DNA of 64,000 nucleotides from Candidatus Kaiserbacteria bacterium (GCA_026396715.1 JAPLWH010000006.1:42850-106849); one strand, 5' to 3'. Shown: positions 37,827 to 44,277, counted from the first letter of the stretch. Program-made: numbers and translations. Notes: generated from the sequence alone by a model not told the origin.

Positions 37827-40604
37827 ATGCTCACTTGGAATGAGATGCGTGATAGGGCGACCAAATTCGCCCGCGCATGGAGAGACGAGACGCGCGAGAT
37901 GGGAGAATACCAGACCTTTTGGAACGAATTCTTCGACATATTCGGCATAAAGCGCCGTTCTGTCGCTATTTATCAACAACAGGTGGAAAAGCTCGGTGGA
38001 GGACGCGGATTCATCGATCTCTTCCAGCCAGGGAAACTTATCGCCGAACATAAGTCCGCTGGGAAAGATCTCGATGAAGCATTCATGCAGGCGATCGAAT
38101 ACTCTGCAGCTCTTCCCGAAGACATACGCCCCCGCTATATCATCATCACTGATTACGCGCACATGCGCCTCTGTGACCTCGAAGGCGAAAACGGAGAGAC
38201 GGAAAAATATGAGTTTCCCCTCTCGGACCTTCCGAAGCATATTCGGCACTTCGCATTCATTCCCGGCTATGAGGTGCGCAAATACCGTGAGCAGGATCCA
38301 GTGAACCGCAAGGCGGTGCGCGTCGTGGTCAATCTGTATCAGACGCTCGCAAAAAGTAATTACCCGCGGGAACATCTTGGGCACTTGCTCGTACGGCTCG
38401 TCTTCTGTTATTTCGCAGACGACGCCGGCATCTTCCCGCCCGGCGAGCCATTCCGCTATTACCTGGCACTCGGGAGCAGTGAAGACGGCAACGATTTCGG
38501 CAGCCGTCTCGATGCCGTCTTTTCAACATTGAACACACCCGAAGAAAGGCGGCAAACAACGCTCGATGAGCGGCTCGCTGAATTACCCTATGTAAATGGC
38601 GGACTCTTCGCCGATTACCTCCCTGTCGTCTTCTTCAACCGCGAGATGCGCCGTGCGGTGCTTGATGCTTGCGAGTTCAATTGGAGCGCAGTTTCCCCGG
38701 AGATTTTCGGCTCAATGTTCCAGTTCGTACTCGAAACCGACTCGGGCGACACTCGCCATGACTTCGGCGCCCACTACACTTCAGAGAAGAACATCCTGAA
38801 AGTCATCGACGGTCTCTTTATGGATGAGCTGCGTACCGAACTCTCCACAGCTGGCAAAAACACGGCAAAGCTGAATGCGCTCTGGGAGAAAATCGCTCGC
38901 ATTACCCTCCTCGACCCAGCCTGCGGTTGTGGCAACTTCCTTGTCGTCGCCTATAGAGAGCTGCGCCGTCTTGAGCTCGAAATATTGAAGCGTCTCCATC
39001 CGCAACACGCTGAGCAAGTAGAAGGAGCGGGTCAAACGGCGCTTCCAATAGACATCCGCCATCTTTCAAAACTTTCTGTCGAGCGGATGTACGGCATCGA
39101 GCTTCTCCACTTCCCCGCAGAAATAGCGAAGCTCTCGCTCTGGCTTACCGACCATCTTGCAAACATAGAGCTGGGCGATTATTTCGGTGTACCATTTGTG
39201 AAGCTTCCCTTGACCGAATCCCCGCACATCAAAGAAGGCAATGCGCTCACGCTCGACTGGGAATCTATAGTCCCGAAAGAAAATCTCTCCTATATCCTCG
39301 GCAATCCGCCCTTTATAGGATCGCGCGTCATGGACGCGAACCAAAAAGCGGACATGCTTGCCGTCTTCGGAAAAATCAGAGAACTCGGCTTTCTTGATTA
39401 TGTAACTGCTTGGTATAAGAAAGCCGCCACGTATATCCAAAATACGCCGATTAAAGTCGGCTTCGTATCAACAAACTCCATCACGCAAGGCGAACAGGTC
39501 GGCATCTTGTGGGAGCAATTGCATGCGCTCAATATTCACATCCATTTCGCGCATCGTACCTTCAAGTGGAGTAACGAGGCACCGGGGAAGGCCGCCGTGT
39601 ATTGCGTCATCATCGGTTTCGCGGCGTTCCCTTCAGAGCGACCTCGACTTTTTGATTACGAAGATGTTCGCGGCGAAGCTCACGAAGTAAGTGTAAAAGA
39701 AATAAATCCCTATCTAGTCGCGGCACCAGAAAATGTCATTGTACGCAACCGCCACAAACCAATTTCAGAGGTACCCGAGATGTCATTCGGCAATATGCCG
39801 CGGGATGCCGGCGCATTTATTTTGAGCGAAGAGGAACGTGCAAATCTTCTTGCGCAGGAACCAGCAGCAGAAAAGTTTGTTCGCGATTATATGGGCGCGC
39901 AAGAATTTTTGCATAGTGAGAAACGCTACTGTCTCTGGCTTGTGGACGCAAAACCCGAAGAGCTTCGCGCACTCCCACTAGTCATGCGCCGTATTGAAAA
40001 CGTTCGCGCATTTCGCGAGTTAAGTGCCGCGGCTTCAACACGCAAAATGGCAGAAACGCCATCTCTCTTCGCGCAACGCACACAACCAAAAAGTGATTAC
40101 GTACTTATTCCGAGTACCTCGTCTGAAAATCGTCGATATGTTCCGATGGGCTTTATGCCCAAGGAAGTAATAGCCAGTAATAGTTGTCACACTATACCAA
40201 GTGCAACTCTCTATCACTTCGGCGTTCTTGAAAGCGAGCTCCATATGACCTGGATGCGTGCTATCTGCGGACGACTTGAAAGTCGCTATCGTTATTCTAA
40301 AGACATTGTCTACAACAATTTCCCGTGGCTGGAAAATCCTTCAACGGAAGTGAAGAAGGCGGTCGAAGATGCGGCACAGGCAATCCTCAATGTGCGTGCT
40401 GCGCACCCCGGCGCAACGCTTGCCGACCTCTACGACCCGCTCACGATGCCCACCGATCTCCTCGCGGCGCACCACGCGCTCGACCGCGCCGTCGACCGCG
40501 CCTACGACATTACCAAGCCCTTCCCATCCGAATCCGCCCGTCTCGAATTTCTATTTGAGAAATACCAAAAACTTCTGCAACGAACGCCTACAAAGAAAAT
40601 CTGA
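37827..40604 (+). CDS. MmeI-family Type IIL/IIG restriction-modification enzyme (endonuclease + N6-adenine methyltransferase + TRD in one polypeptide)
   Basis: 925 aa; N-terminus MLTWNEMRDRATKFARAWRDE...FWNEFFDIFGI matches MmeI nuclease domain; MTase motif I LDPACGCGNFLV, motif IV GNPPFIG; FVSTNSITQGEQV; C-terminal SRYRYS...FPW and LADLYDP motifs. Confidence 0.88.
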   Translation: MLTWNEMRDRATKFARAWRDETREMGEYQTFWNEFFDIFGIKRRSVAIYQQQVEKLGGGRGFIDLFQPGKLIAEHKSAGKDLDEAFMQAIEYSAALPEDIRPRYIIITDYAHMRLCDLEGENGETEKYEFPLSDLPKHIRHFAFIPGYEVRKYREQDPVNRKAVRVVVNLYQTLAKSNYPREHLGHLLVRLVFCYFADDAGIFPPGEPFRYYLALGSSEDGNDFGSRLDAVFSTLNTPEERRQTTLDERLAELPYVNGGLFADYLPVVFFNREMRRAVLDACEFNWSAVSPEIFGSMFQFVLETDSGDTRHDFGAHYTSEKNILKVIDGLFMDELRTELSTAGKNTAKLNALWEKIARITLLDPACGCGNFLVVAYRELRRLELEILKRLHPQHAEQVEGAGQTALPIDIRHLSKLSVERMYGIELLHFPAEIAKLSLWLTDHLANIELGDYFGVPFVKLPLTESPHIKEGNALTLDWESIVPKENLSYILGNPPFIGSRVMDANQKADMLAVFGKIRELGFLDYVTAWYKKAATYIQNTPIKVGFVSTNSITQGEQVGILWEQLHALNIHIHFAHRTFKWSNEAPGKAAVYCVIIGFAAFPSERPRLFDYEDVRGEAHEVSVKEINPYLVAAPENVIVRNRHKPISEVPEMSFGNMPRDAGAFILSEEERANLLAQEPAAEKFVRDYMGAQEFLHSEKRYCLWLVDAKPEELRALPLVMRRIENVRAFRELSAAASTRKMAETPSLFAQRTQPKSDYVLIPSTSSENRRYVPMGFMPKEVIASNSCHTIPSATLYHFGVLESELHMTWMRAICGRLESRYRYSKDIVYNNFPWLENPSTEVKKAVEDAAQAILNVRAAHPGATLADLYDPLTMPTDLLAAHHALDRAVDRAYDITKPFPSESARLEFLFEKYQKLLQRTPTKKI

Positions 40605-40606
40605 TT

Positions 40607-40834
40607 TCAACCGCGAGGCGGAAAATCATCGTTTCCATACGAGTTTCGCCATCCGATTCTGCCATTCTCATTCTGCACGAATAGTTCGGCCTCTTTATTG
40701 ATAGCGACTTCGCGTGCTCGTACAACCGCTTCCGCTTTCGTGTCATATATACCTGCAGCCCGTTCTGCTCCCGCGGAATGTACCTTCCAATCCTCGCCTG
40801 ATGGACTAACCCATACTTGCTTTTGCTTGCTCAT
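40607..40834 (-). CDS. DUF2188-family protein
   Basis: 75 aa; WKV...TKAEA...A..A....EL.V...G.I....SYGNDDFPPRG pattern. Confidence 0.6.
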   Translation of the reverse strand: MSKQKQVWVSPSGEDWKVHSAGAERAAGIYDTKAEAVVRAREVAINKEAELFVQNENGRIGWRNSYGNDDFPPRG

Positions 40835-40920
40835 GTTAATTCTGCATTACTTGATAATAAAACTCTTGTCTCTTCCTTCTTCGGTAACCGAATTGAGTCC
40901 ATTTTATTCCTCAAATATCC

Positions 40921-40973
40921 ACTGTCAATATCCCCGACATATATTTGACAGTAATTCTGACACTGCTACCATA
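40921..40973 (+). promoter_or_regulatory. 8-bp inverted repeat (actgtcaa-N16-ttgacagt) overlapping -35 TTGACA of putative promoter for HTH-Panacea gene
   Basis: IR 40921-40928 / 40945-40952; TTGACA 40945-40950, 16-nt spacer, TACCAT 40967-40972, ATG at 40979. Confidence 0.45.
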
Positions 40974-40978
40974 GACCT

Positions 40979-41761
40979 ATGACCACCGCACTTCTAAAAA
41001 AACTTCGGGAGGAACAAGCATTGTCACAAGATTCAATAGCGAGAGAGCTTGGTATTTCGCGCCCGACATATATCGCGATTGAACAAGGGAAACGCAAGCT
41101 TACCCTCTCTGAAGCGGAGTGTTTGGCACAGATGTTTAGTATCTCACTCGACGAACTTGTCTACGGGAAACGTCGCAAGGTGGATGTCGTCTTATCGAAA
41201 ACACCGGTACCAAAGAAGGTAGCTGCGGAAAATGGTATACGCATCAGCGTCCCAGCCGAGAATAAAGAGAAGTTCAAACAGGTACTGCTCTATATTCTTG
41301 AAAAAATCGGTAGCAAGCCGAATATCGGCATGACCGCCCTCTATAAAATCCTCTATTTCATCGACTTCGACTACTACGAGAAATTCGAAGAACAACTCAT
41401 GGGTGCTGTGTACATCCGCAATCATTATGGTCCGACTCCTGTTGCCTTCACAAAAATCGTGAAAGAAATGGAACGCGAGGGTACTCTTGCAGCAATCGAA
41501 ACAAAGTATTTTCAACATGAACAGAAGAAATTCCTTCCTCGCACGAAGCCAGAATTAAAACAACTTTCTGGTCAAGAAATTGCACATATCGATGAAACGC
41601 TAGCGCGGCTTGGCGACAAGAACGCTCGTGAACTTACCGAGCTGTCTCATCGCGATATCCCATGGATGTGCGTCAAAGATGGCGAGCCGCTTGAATATGA
41701 GTCCGTCTTTTATCGTTCAGATGAGACTTCACAACGTGATTATGGACCGGATCCGTTATGA
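40979..41761 (+). CDS. XRE-family HTH + Panacea (DUF4065) domain protein, antitoxin-like (PanA/SocA-like)
   Basis: N-terminal HTH (LSQDSIARELGISRPTYIAIEQGKRKLTLSEAECLAQMF); central ALYKILYFIDFDYYEKFEEQLMGAVYIRNHYGPTP matches DUF4065. Confidence 0.7.
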   Translation: MTTALLKKLREEQALSQDSIARELGISRPTYIAIEQGKRKLTLSEAECLAQMFSISLDELVYGKRRKVDVVLSKTPVPKKVAAENGIRISVPAENKEKFKQVLLYILEKIGSKPNIGMTALYKILYFIDFDYYEKFEEQLMGAVYIRNHYGPTPVAFTKIVKEMEREGTLAAIETKYFQHEQKKFLPRTKPELKQLSGQEIAHIDETLARLGDKNARELTELSHRDIPWMCVKDGEPLEYESVFYRSDETSQRDYGPDPL

Positions 41762-42125
41762 GGAAACGCTAGGGTTCGCTCATGACATCAAGAAGCTCCT
41801 TAAACGCTTCCGCTCACTCCGAGCAGATATAGAAGTAGCAAAACGCTACGCGTTAGAACCTTTCCATGCCGAGCCGCGCATAGACACGAATGCTATCGAA
41901 GAAATTTCGGGGTCATGTACGGAAGAAGTGCGGGCATGCAAAATAAAAAAATTCACATGCCGGGCAATCAAGGGGCGAGGTGTTATGAGCGGAATCCGCA
42001 TTACCTATGCGTATCACATCCGACAGAAGCGTGTGGTGTTCATCGAGATTTATTTCAAGGGCGACAAAGAGAATGAGGATCGCGCGCGGATTAAAGAATA
42101 TCTCGAGAGTATACTAGACGCATGA
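41742..42125 (+). CDS. RelE/ParE-superfamily (HigB/Gp49-like) toxin candidate
   Basis: 127 aa from MDRIRYEETLGF...; C-terminal GIRITYAYHIRQKRVVFIEIYFKGDKENEDRARIKEY resembles RelE/HigB core; 20-nt overlap with upstream gene, ATGA overlap with downstream. Confidence 0.45.
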   Translation: MDRIRYEETLGFAHDIKKLLKRFRSLRADIEVAKRYALEPFHAEPRIDTNAIEEISGSCTEEVRACKIKKFTCRAIKGRGVMSGIRITYAYHIRQKRVVFIEIYFKGDKENEDRARIKEYLESILDA

Positions 42126-43033
42126 ATGCAAAAGTGATTCGTGCGGCTACAGCACTAATTCTCGCGCTCGCGGCGGGCGCGATGGGATACACGGCGGGCG
42201 GGAGCGGAACGGAAAGTCCGAACATAAGCATCCCCGCTCAAACTATTGCCGCACCAACAGCAGGCACGACACGCGTGATTTACAGCCTCGATCAGAAACA
42301 GAATGATAAAGAACTCATCGCACTCATCAATGCCGCAGAGGACCACATCTACTTCGCGATCTACACCTTTACCCTTCCGACTATCGCCGACGCTCTCGTC
42401 AAAGCAAAAAAGCGCGGCGTCGATGTGAAAGGACTCATGGACTCCGAGCAAAGCGGCAACAGTTACGGCACTCCTATTACTGCAAAACTGCGTGACGCCG
42501 GTATTCCTCTCCTTGTAGAGCGACACGCAAGTGGCAACGGCATCATGCACATAAAACTCCTTGTGACGGAACAGGCGTACGCCTTTGGCAGCTATAACTG
42601 GACCAATTCCGCGACAACTCTCAACGATGAAATCCTCGAAATCGGTACCGACCCGGCACTGCGGCAGACGTACGAAAATATTTTGAAACGACTGTTTGAT
42701 GCCTATAAAGGCAACGCGGCCGCGGGAGCGGCCGCGAGTGTTTCTATCGGGACCATCGACTACACGCAAGCACCCGCGCACGTCGGCCAAAGAGCCTCCG
42801 TGCGCGGCACCCTCGTCAAAGCCTATACCTCCGCAAGTGGTACCGTCTTCCTCGATTTCTGCGAGAATTACAAAAACTGCCCCTTTTCAGGCGTCATCTT
42901 CGCCGACGATGTAAAAAAATTCGGCACCCTTTCTCGCTACAATGGGACCGCCATCACCCTTACCGGCAAAATCTCCTCCTACCAGGGAAAAGCCGAAATC
43001 GTCCTTTCTAATCCGAATCAAATCTCTCTGTGA
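42122..43033 (+). CDS. Secreted phospholipase D (HKD)-family nuclease (Nuc-like) fused to C-terminal OB-fold domain
   Basis: Signal peptide MNAKVIRAATALILALAAGAMG; single HKD-like motif HIKLLVTE...GSYNWT; C-terminal ~100 aa with OB-fold-like pattern (VRGTLVKAY..SGTVFLDF...ITLTGKISSYQGKAEIVL). Confidence 0.65.
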   Translation: MNAKVIRAATALILALAAGAMGYTAGGSGTESPNISIPAQTIAAPTAGTTRVIYSLDQKQNDKELIALINAAEDHIYFAIYTFTLPTIADALVKAKKRGVDVKGLMDSEQSGNSYGTPITAKLRDAGIPLLVERHASGNGIMHIKLLVTEQAYAFGSYNWTNSATTLNDEILEIGTDPALRQTYENILKRLFDAYKGNAAAGAAASVSIGTIDYTQAPAHVGQRASVRGTLVKAYTSASGTVFLDFCENYKNCPFSGVIFADDVKKFGTLSRYNGTAITLTGKISSYQGKAEIVLSNPNQISL

Positions 43034-43095: not shown

Positions 43096-43665
43096 GTGGC
43101 TACTGAACGACTTCGCATAAATAACGAGATCCGCGCGCAAGAATTGCGCGTTATTGGTGCCCAAGGGGAGAATTTGGGAGTTCTTTCGCTTGACGCGGCG
43201 CTCGCGGCCGCAAAAACCGCCGGACGCGACCTCATCGAAATCTCACCTTCGGCCCTGCCGCCCGTTGCGAAAATCATGGATTATGGTAAATTCGAATACG
43301 AGCGTAGCAAGAAGGAAAAGGTAGCAAAAGCCAAGGTCAAAGTGTCTGAGACCAAGGAGGTCCAGATCAAGGTGGGCACCGGCGACCACGATATGGGGCT
43401 CAAGGCGAGAAAGGCCGCTGAGTGGCTCGCCGAGGGTCACCGAGTACGTGCCGAGCTCTTCCTCAAAGGCCGCTACAAGGGCATGGGAGAGGAGTTCTTG
43501 AAGGAACGCCTCGTGCGGTTCCTCAAGCTCATCCCGTATGCCTACAAAGTCTCTGAGCCCGTCGCGCGGAGCCCCAAAGGCTTTGCTGGGGTCATCGAAC
43601 GAGACCTCATAGCCCAAGCGAAACGTGAGAAAGAACAGAAACCACAAAATGAAAAACCCAGTTAG
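43096..43665 (+). CDS. infC: Translation initiation factor IF-3
   Basis: INNEIRAQELRVIG...DLIEISPSALPPVAKIMDYGKFEYE. Confidence 0.9.
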   Translation: MATERLRINNEIRAQELRVIGAQGENLGVLSLDAALAAAKTAGRDLIEISPSALPPVAKIMDYGKFEYERSKKEKVAKAKVKVSETKEVQIKVGTGDHDMGLKARKAAEWLAEGHRVRAELFLKGRYKGMGEEFLKERLVRFLKLIPYAYKVSEPVARSPKGFAGVIERDLIAQAKREKEQKPQNEKPS

Positions 43666-43695
43666 AAAGTCTCTCGGATTCGACTTCTAACGGGG
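43658..43695 (+). promoter_or_regulatory. Intercistronic hairpin infC–rpmI carrying CCCaGTTAGAA/TTCTAACGGGG arms
   Basis: cccagttagaaagtc tctcggatt cgacttctaacgggg; overlaps infC stop. Confidence 0.45.
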
Positions 43696-43709
43696 CAAGC
43701 AAACAAAAC

Positions 43710-43904
43710 ATGAAAACAAACAAATCTTACTCAAAACGAATACGAGTTACCCGCAACGGGAAGCTCATGGCGCGCGCAAAAGGCCAGAACCATTTCAATG
43801 CGAAGGCGAGCGGTTCCGAGCGCAACGGCAAGCGCCGTCCAGTCGCGATCAAGCTGACGATGAAGGTCCGCCGCCGTTTCCTTCCGGGCACGGGCGCTAA
43901 GTAA
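43710..43904 (+). CDS. rpmI: 50S ribosomal protein L35
   Basis: 64 aa; MKTNKSYSKRIRVTRNGKL. Confidence 0.9.
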   Translation: MKTNKSYSKRIRVTRNGKLMARAKGQNHFNAKASGSERNGKRRPVAIKLTMKVRRRFLPGTGAK

Positions 43905-43953
43905 TTAATCTTTCTGTAATCATTTTCGTATGACAAGAATCAAAGGAGGAGTA

Positions 43954-44277
43954 ATGGCGCAGAAACGCCGCAAGAACATTCTCGAACGCGCCAAGGGCTA
44001 CCGCGGCATCCGCTCGAAGAAGGAACGCTACGCGCACGAAGCGCTCATGCGCGCTGGCCGCTACGCGTTCGCCCACCGCCGCGACAAAAAGACCGACTTC
44101 CGCCAGGTCTGGATCGTTCGGCTGAACGCCGCTGTCCGCGAGACCGGCCACAAGTCCTACTCCACATTCATCGCGAAGCTCAAGAAGTCCGGTTTTGCCC
44201 TCGACCGCAAGGTCCTCGCTCAATTCGCCTCCGACCATCCGGAAATTTTCGCCCGCATCAGCAAGCAAGTCGTCTAA
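43954..44277 (+). CDS. rplT: 50S ribosomal protein L20
   Basis: Start MAQKRRKNILERAKGYRG preceded by aaaGGAGGag SD; ORF-track upstream start lacks SD. Confidence 0.88.
   Translation: MAQKRRKNILERAKGYRGIRSKKERYAHEALMRAGRYAFAHRRDKKTDFRQVWIVRLNAAVRETGHKSYSTFIAKLKKSGFALDRKVLAQFASDHPEIFARISKQVV

Follow-up and report, generated by a model that had tools for sequence, protein, structure and literature searches.

Layout of the panAT locus and domains of PanA

The window analyzed here is a 64,000-nucleotide (nt) stretch of a 119-kb contig from a Candidatus Kaiserbacteria metagenome-assembled genome (GCA_026396715.1, JAPLWH010000006.1:42850-106849), and our subject is a pair of overlapping genes within it, panA and panT, which encode a candidate antitoxin and a candidate toxin. 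A sequence-only reading of the window had described a 260-amino-acid (aa) open reading frame (ORF) and a 127-aa ORF beginning at ATG 41742, with 20 nt shared between them, and both were recovered exactly so. The features of the locus are as follows.

40979-41761, + strand: panA (ORF A), 260 aa; NCBI MCX6787746.1, "DUF4065 domain-containing protein"; helix-turn-helix (HTH), disordered linker, and Panacea domain
40979-41164, + strand: XRE/Cro-type HTH DNA-binding domain of PanA, residues 1-62
41177-41257, + strand: Lys-rich linker of PanA, predicted to be disordered, residues 67-92; predicted local distance difference test score (pLDDT) ~31
41264-41713, + strand: globular Panacea (DUF4065/SocA-like) domain of PanA, residues 96-245
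41339-41665, + strand: Pfam Panacea match within PanA, residues 121-229
41742-41761, + strand: panA/panT overlap, 20 nt
41742-42125, + strand: panT (ORF B), 127 aa; RelE/ParE-fold (HigB2-like) toxin candidate; NCBI MCX6787747.1, "hypothetical protein"
40909-40952, no strand assigned: operator-like region upstream of panA, with inverted and direct repeats
40945-40972, + strand: putative sigma-70-type panAT promoter (promoter scan; function inferred)

The panA stop codon occupies 41759-41761 and the panT ATG lies at 41742, so that the overlap is exactly 20 nt, which implies translational coupling of the two genes. Each of the six window proteins that were looked up is an exact match to an NCBI entry, and NCBI calls the identical 127-aa panT product; this call and the family alignment favor ATG 41742 over ATG 41721, an alternative panT start that we rejected and that would give 134 aa, the form seen in the cluster representative P0001. 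Antisense ORFs at 41195-41518 and 41849-42001 and an upstream extension of the B frame gave no family matches, and an Rfam search of 40400-42400 returned no match. ORF A and ORF B are both real genes, and homologues of ORF A number in the thousands. The segments quoted in the sequence-only reading are found in the products, with ALYKILYFIDFDYYEKFEEQLMGAVYIRNHYGPTP forming residues 120-154 of ORF A and GIRITYAYH...VVFIEIYFKGDKEN contained in ORF B.

The N-terminal XRE HTH and the DUF4065/Panacea domain that had been recognized by eye in PanA both match Pfam models well above cut-off. Residues 6-60 match HTH_3 (PF01381; E = 2.1e-11), and residues 121-229 match SocA_Panacea (PF13274; E = 1.3e-16, 61.9 bits, gathering score 25.7) over profile positions 1-112 of 113. 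PF13274 is present in all listed PanA homologues; the NCBIfam SocA_antitoxin model also matches (E = 1e-5), far below its own cut-off. An AlphaFold (AF2) model of PanA made with 36 homologues (pLDDT 81) has three parts, in which the linker separates an ordered five-helix HTH (residues 1-62) from a well-predicted globular domain (residues 96-245). The HTH_3 match and the five-helix fold place the N-terminal domain in the XRE/Cro-C1 class, and sequence relatives of PanA in the PDB cover the HTH part only.

The PanA linker ends in a motif, E-I-R-I-x-V-P-Q (residues 86-93), that is conserved across 77 sequences, with R88 and P92 invariant in the PanA alignment (A2). Segments that become folded on contact with a partner are expected to show just such a conserved motif within a disordered region, and we regard this one as a candidate toxin-binding segment with a putative role in neutralization.

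Fold and predicted activity of PanT

PanT matched nothing in Pfam, NCBIfam, PADLOC, or PHROGs, and given that curated hidden Markov model (HMM) libraries yielded no toxin family, evidence from the fold was needed. The AlphaFold model of PanT (pLDDT 86.5; predicted template modeling score, 0.83) has a β1-α1-α2 unit, then a sheet of four strands and a final C-terminal helix; this corresponds to the RelE-type fold, in which the first strand and two helices pack against an antiparallel sheet. A structural search returned RelE-type proteins, and Foldseek agreed with these matches (Z scores).

Vibrio cholerae HigB2: 10.2 (95 residues, root mean square deviation 2.2 Å)
Streptococcus pneumoniae HigB: 9.6
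Pyrococcus horikoshii RelE: 9.4
Mycobacterium tuberculosis HigB1: 8.9
YafQ: 8.6
YoeB: 8.1
ParE: about 7.7

As modeled, PanT has the whole RelE/ParE fold, with V. cholerae HigB2 as its closest match, in agreement with the suggestion, made originally from the sequence, of a RelE/HigB-like toxin candidate. A second suggestion fared less well: the N-terminal ~60 residues had been left unplaced and taken as grounds for a possibly novel PanT toxin. The model and the structural matches indicate that these residues make up the usual first half of the RelE fold, its standard β1-α1-α2, with no novel appendage, and a group combining HTH-PanA with a HigB-2-like PanT (T14; see below) had already been listed. 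Because the family HMMs went unmatched and the sequence link to HigB-2 is sub-threshold, we file PanT under the RelE/ParE superfamily by fold and not within an existing sequence family.

That sequence link is nevertheless informative about the likely active site. Searched against the PDB, the PanT family profile reached HigB-2 at E = 0.016, below threshold, and hhalign aligned PanT 75-110 with HigB-2 53-88 (E = 2e-4, probability 46%; HigB-2 query verified as identical to 5ja9_C). In this alignment PanT R86, Y104, and K106, invariant across 40 diverse members, fall on HigB2 R64, Y82, and K84, whose replacement by Ala reduces activity 350-, 1200-, and 3000-fold, respectively (Hadzi et al. 2017, PMC5416850). 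The Gly/Lys/Arg-rich β2-β3 loop typical of HigB2 is also kept in the PanT family, and on the preceding strand K67 and K70 are invariant and K69 nearly so; the candidate active-site residues are therefore R86, Y104, and K106, plus K67/K69/K70. The aligned residues together with the loop make a ribosome-dependent mRNase more likely than a gyrase inhibitor of the ParE type, and PanT probably acts in the former manner, cutting mRNA.

A related domain occurs at the end of a much larger protein. In P0339 (3334 aa), a CdiA/FhaB-like protein with filamentous-hemagglutinin repeats, residues 3216-3330 form a PanT domain (E = 1.7e-22), and this C-terminal segment of ~115 aa retains the candidate catalytic residues. 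The arrangement implies that the same RelE-fold domain is used as an effector of the contact-dependent-inhibition type, and it offers independent support for the toxicity of the PanT domain.

The PanT family also carries conserved residues that are unusual for RelE-type toxins: C73 and H42 are invariant, and C59 and C66 are present in at least 90% of the 40 members, with one subgroup (e.g., P0083 and P0100) lacking both of the latter. These cysteines and H42 could form a metal or redox site.

Conserved pairing and promoter layout

Homologues of PanT are numerous and concentrated in one part of the bacterial tree. A word-indexed search found at least 356, a profile search matched 739 representative clusters at 50% identity (E <= 1e-3; among 1.84 billion representatives), and 496 matching loci were found in 185,579 species-representative genomes. 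Among the best 80 of these 496 loci, ~59 are labeled Patescibacteria/candidate phyla radiation, ~11 belong to other phyla (Proteobacteria, Nitrospinota, Acidimicrobiia, Spirochaetota, and Fibrobacteres), and ~10 have no phylum label.

Genomic context was surveyed in 3 loci found by exact protein and in those best 80 species-level genome loci. A full-length PanA homologue (E = 1e-76 to 1e-97, covering residues ~5-256) lies directly upstream on the same strand in 84/86 PanT homologues (85 loci), and of the two unpaired ones, one lies at a contig edge and the other is a partial second copy. Nearly all homologous pairs overlap, by 2-32 nt and typically by 8, 11, 14, 17, or 20 nt. The other neighbors vary in every locus examined and the flanking genes are not conserved; among the 85 loci, homologues of the genes next to panAT in the window recur 0 (PLD-like gene), 3 (DUF2188), 2 (MmeI-like), and 1 (infC) times. 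The panAT module has a GC content of 46-48%, compared with 55% for the window, which is probably a sign of horizontal acquisition. Strict pairing, overlapping genes, unrelated contexts, and lower GC together are signatures of a mobile two-gene toxin-antitoxin (TA) module, and the locus has features of type II TA systems in its small bicistronic operon, the HTH of its antitoxin, and its patchy, context-independent distribution.

Upstream of panA, the previously noted 8-bp palindrome has arms ACTGTCAA (40921-40928) and TTGACAGT (40945-40952) with 16 nt between them. A perfect 8-nt inverted repeat was reached in 0/100 shuffles of the 110 nt upstream, and the right arm contains the -35-like hexamer TTGACA (40945-40950), so that the palindrome does overlap the putative -35 as had been described. 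An extended -10 element, TGcTACCAT, follows 16 nt on and ends at 40972 (-10 hexamer 40967-40972), with the panA ATG 7 nt after the -10. The same region holds a second inverted repeat (TCAAATAT, 40911-40918, and ATATTTGA, 40941-40948) and a direct repeat, AATATCC, at 40914 and 40927. The promoter scan taken alone did not rise above chance (5 sites, 3.0 expected), and no Shine-Dalgarno sequence precedes panA.

We compared the 100 nt upstream of panA across 75 distinct loci (from L001-L085). Hexamers of the form TT[GT]ACA / TGT[CA]AA occur at 2.36 per 100 nt versus ~0.2 expected, an enrichment of ~11-fold, and 81% of the loci have at least two. Their positions recur: 17 loci have a forward copy starting at -34, and reverse copies start at -69 in 14 and at -45 in 6. 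The closest subgroup has the layout TGTCAA-atttatccaca-N-TTGACA-N17-TAtAcT-N6-ATG, and the window fits it: TTGACA stands at -34 in the forward direction, TGTCAA at -56 in the reverse, and a degenerate copy lies near -70. A TAnnnT box starts at -12 in 26/75 loci, and a Shine-Dalgarno-like core is found in only 10/75. With only 6-7 nt between the end of the -10 box and the ATG, and with few Shine-Dalgarno sequences, the panAT mRNA is probably leaderless, starting at or beside the ATG, across Patescibacteria and other hosts. A second layout, in which direct repeats TTTACA-N6-TTGACA-N6-TTTACA recur with a 12-bp period, often with an inverted TGTAAA before them, was seen in another subgroup, at L024, L026, L039, L044, L060, L064, L066, L084, and others.

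Interpretation and genomic neighborhood

We consider it likely that panAT is a type II PanAT TA operon, probably acquired horizontally, in a defense-gene neighborhood of the Ca. Kaiserbacteria genome. Under this interpretation PanT would be a ribosome-dependent mRNA endonuclease using R86, Y104, K106, and the basic residues on the preceding strand. PanA would bind and neutralize it in one of two ways. The Panacea domain itself may contact the toxin, much as DarT is bound by the C-terminal, Panacea-like domain of DarG; alternatively, the conserved disordered linker may fold onto PanT in the way that a disordered segment of HigA2 folds onto HigB2. PanA dimers may also bind TTGACA-type half-sites overlapping the -35 and thereby repress the promoter of the leaderless panAT mRNA. 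If PanA were lost or inactivated, as might happen during phage infection, PanT would be freed and translation would arrest.

Several characterized systems share parts of this architecture. SocA of the Caulobacter SocAB system is the founding Panacea-domain antitoxin, and the Panacea domain is what it has in common with PanA. SocA is a ClpXP adaptor for the toxin SocB (type VI), which blocks the replication clamp. Unlike SocAB, the present pair has a RelE-fold toxin and an antitoxin that carries an HTH. DarG of M. tuberculosis DarTG (PDB 7yk3) carries a macrodomain enzyme at its N terminus and lacks an HTH; the toxin DarT, a DNA ADP-ribosyltransferase, bears no relation to RelE, whereas PanT has the RelE fold. 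V. cholerae HigB2 (PDB 5mje/5ja9/8a0x; Hadzi et al. 2017, PMC5416850) is only 15-18% identical to PanT; the HigBA2 gene order is reversed, with HigB2 before HigA2 where panAT has the antitoxin first, and HigA2 is a small protein consisting of a disordered segment plus HTH that, unlike PanA, has no Panacea domain. PanT further differs from HigB2 in an extra strand and in the conserved C59, C66, and C73, and it falls below the Pfam RelE family PF06296. A 2025 review of RelE/ParE toxins (PMC11980606) mentions neither Panacea nor DUF4065, and PanT belongs to none of the Pfam sequence families that it lists for the superfamily.

The closest counterpart is a group in the study that defined PanAT systems, which reported an HTH domain at the N terminus of 343 PanAs (Kurata et al. 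2022, PNAS, PMC8832971). Group pT15/T14 of its Dataset S1 has the HHpred assignment "Toxin HigB-2 99.73%," antitoxin-then-toxin order, and overlaps of -8, -11, and -17, and its HTH-PanA members include those of Ca. Saccharimonas aalborgensis, a TM7 bacterium, Ca. Cryosericum, Pedobacter, and Flexibacter (PMC8832971). WP_015641600.1 and WP_067091868.1 are among the T14 entries. The present locus resembles T14 in the N-terminal HTH on PanA, the gene order, the short overlap, the HigB-2-like toxin, and the occurrence in candidate phyla; it differs in its host, Ca. Kaiserbacteria, and in a toxin annotated only as "hypothetical protein." Ca. Saccharimonas aalborgensis is not among the best 80 of the 496 PanT loci in species-representative genomes. 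Judged by architecture, structural match, and taxa, assignment of the present pair to PanT group T14 is probable.

Some observations weigh against the interpretation of panAT as a self-regulated mRNase TA operon. No Pfam RelE/ParE-superfamily model matched PanT or any of the 40 aligned members at E <= 1, the curated families checked including PF06296 RelE/HigB2, PF05016 ParE_toxin, PF05015 HigB-like, PF09907, and PF06769. The fourth HigB2 active-site residue, R51, falls on the invariant C73 of PanT by ungapped extension, and every T14 entry in Dataset S1 is marked "notest" (PMC8832971). Autorepression by the HTH, with which the sequence-only reading found the palindrome consistent, has support from the comparison of loci: the half-sites are strongly enriched at fixed positions, but TTGACA is also the sigma-70 -35 consensus, so that the repeated hexamers could be tandem or divergent promoters and not operators. 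In the window, the DUF2188 gene has a divergent promoter whose -35 coincides with the palindrome's left arm, and half-site spacing differs between subgroups.

Were PanT instead a ParE-type toxin of the same fold, which poisons DNA gyrase and does not cleave mRNA on the ribosome, the locus would still be a PanAT pair; we think this unlikely, because the best structural matches are all mRNases (HigB2, HigB, RelE, and YafQ) with Z scores above any ParE, the invariant R86, Y104, and K106 coincide with the catalytic residues of HigB2, and the β2-β3 loop is of the HigB2 kind. A somewhat less probable alternative still is that the locus is not a TA system at all and that PanT, lacking catalytic activity, serves an HTH-Panacea transcription factor or sensor as its co-regulator or partner. 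The lack of a match between PanT and any curated toxin HMM fits this idea, as does the proposal that Panacea may be a sensor and not a neutralizer (Ernits et al. 2023). Against it, residues of catalytic type are invariant across 40 diverse members, a CdiA-like exoprotein employs the domain as its C-terminal toxin, and the strict two-gene linkage, overlaps, and patchy, context-independent distribution are typical of TA modules.

The HTH of PanA also resembles the controller (C) proteins of restriction-modification (R-M) systems (PADLOC "Control_protein," E = 3e-8; PDB matches C.BclI, C.AhdI, and C.Csp231I), and an MmeI-like gene lies ~400 bp upstream of panA, which raises the notion that PanA controls this adjacent R-M gene and that the palindrome is its C-box. 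Co-occurrence speaks against this, an MmeI homologue being nearby in only 2/85 loci and a RelE-fold partner in 84/86 cases; moreover, C proteins lack the 150-aa Panacea domain of PanA, and a divergently oriented gene separates panA from the R-M gene. We accordingly give this notion almost no weight. Returning to the TA operon, a more ambitious version of it would make the pair the dominant uncharacterized TA/abortive-infection module of Patescibacteria, with a mechanism unlike that of studied PanATs, a possible metal or redox switch formed by the Cys residues and H42, and the -35 of a leaderless promoter doubling as operator; we find this version doubtful, if more plausible than any of the three alternatives above.

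The pairing of HTH-Panacea with a HigB-2-like protein was already computationally catalogued in 2022, and the present locus is a further case of it, in Ca. Kaiserbacteria, and no new system; it leaves the current picture of TA biology unchanged. What is added here is a predicted fold and active-site assignment for an unannotated toxin family, its strong concentration in Patescibacteria, the conserved motif in the disordered PanA linker, a conserved and probably leaderless promoter-operator layout, and the finding that a CdiA-like exoprotein reuses the toxin domain. MCX6787747.1 and its relatives, now "hypothetical protein," become annotatable as RelE/HigB2-like toxins, and a new HMM is justified because the PanT family lies outside Pfam, NCBIfam, and PADLOC. 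A tightly conserved HTH-Panacea:RelE-fold pair is thus widespread in Patescibacteria, which have tiny genomes and few known defense or stress modules. Panacea either neutralizes directly or is an accessory or sensor domain when another element neutralizes (Ernits et al. 2023), and the pair is a natural candidate for asking which role applies. The conserved promoter/operator layout and apparent leaderless mRNA likewise lead to concrete regulatory hypotheses.

The genes that surround panAT in the window are the following.

37827-40604, + strand: MmeI-family type IIL/IIG R-M enzyme, 925 aa, ~400 bp upstream of panA
40607-40834, - strand: DUF2188 protein, 75 aa; full-length match to PADLOC phage-defense candidate PDC-S16 (E = 9e-27)
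42122-43033, + strand: PLD-like nuclease, 303 aa; PLDc_2 (E = 2.5e-22); NucT- and DrmC-like
43096-44277, + strand: infC-rpmI-rplT operon (IF-3, L35, L20), directly downstream of the PLD gene

The MmeI enzyme, the DUF2188 protein, PanAT, and the PLD nuclease look like a small defense island, and with infC-rpmI-rplT directly after the PLD gene these defense-type genes adjoin core translation genes. The product of 37827-40604 contains all five MmeI domains (N, helicase spacer, methyltransferase, target recognition domain, and C; E = 1e-19 to 1e-90), and its NCBI label is only "class I SAM-dependent DNA methyltransferase." The ATG of the PLD-like gene overlaps the panT stop codon (ATGA), and the gene may therefore be co-transcribed with panT; it was rejected as a third component of the system, since 0/85 homologous loci carry a PLD-like gene. 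Its product has a hydrophobic, signal-peptide-like N terminus and a weak C-terminal OB-fold match, and the gene contains a perfect 9-bp GC palindrome at 42715-42736. In the ORF list infC begins with GTG; a start codon other than ATG, as this one appears to be, is usual for that gene.
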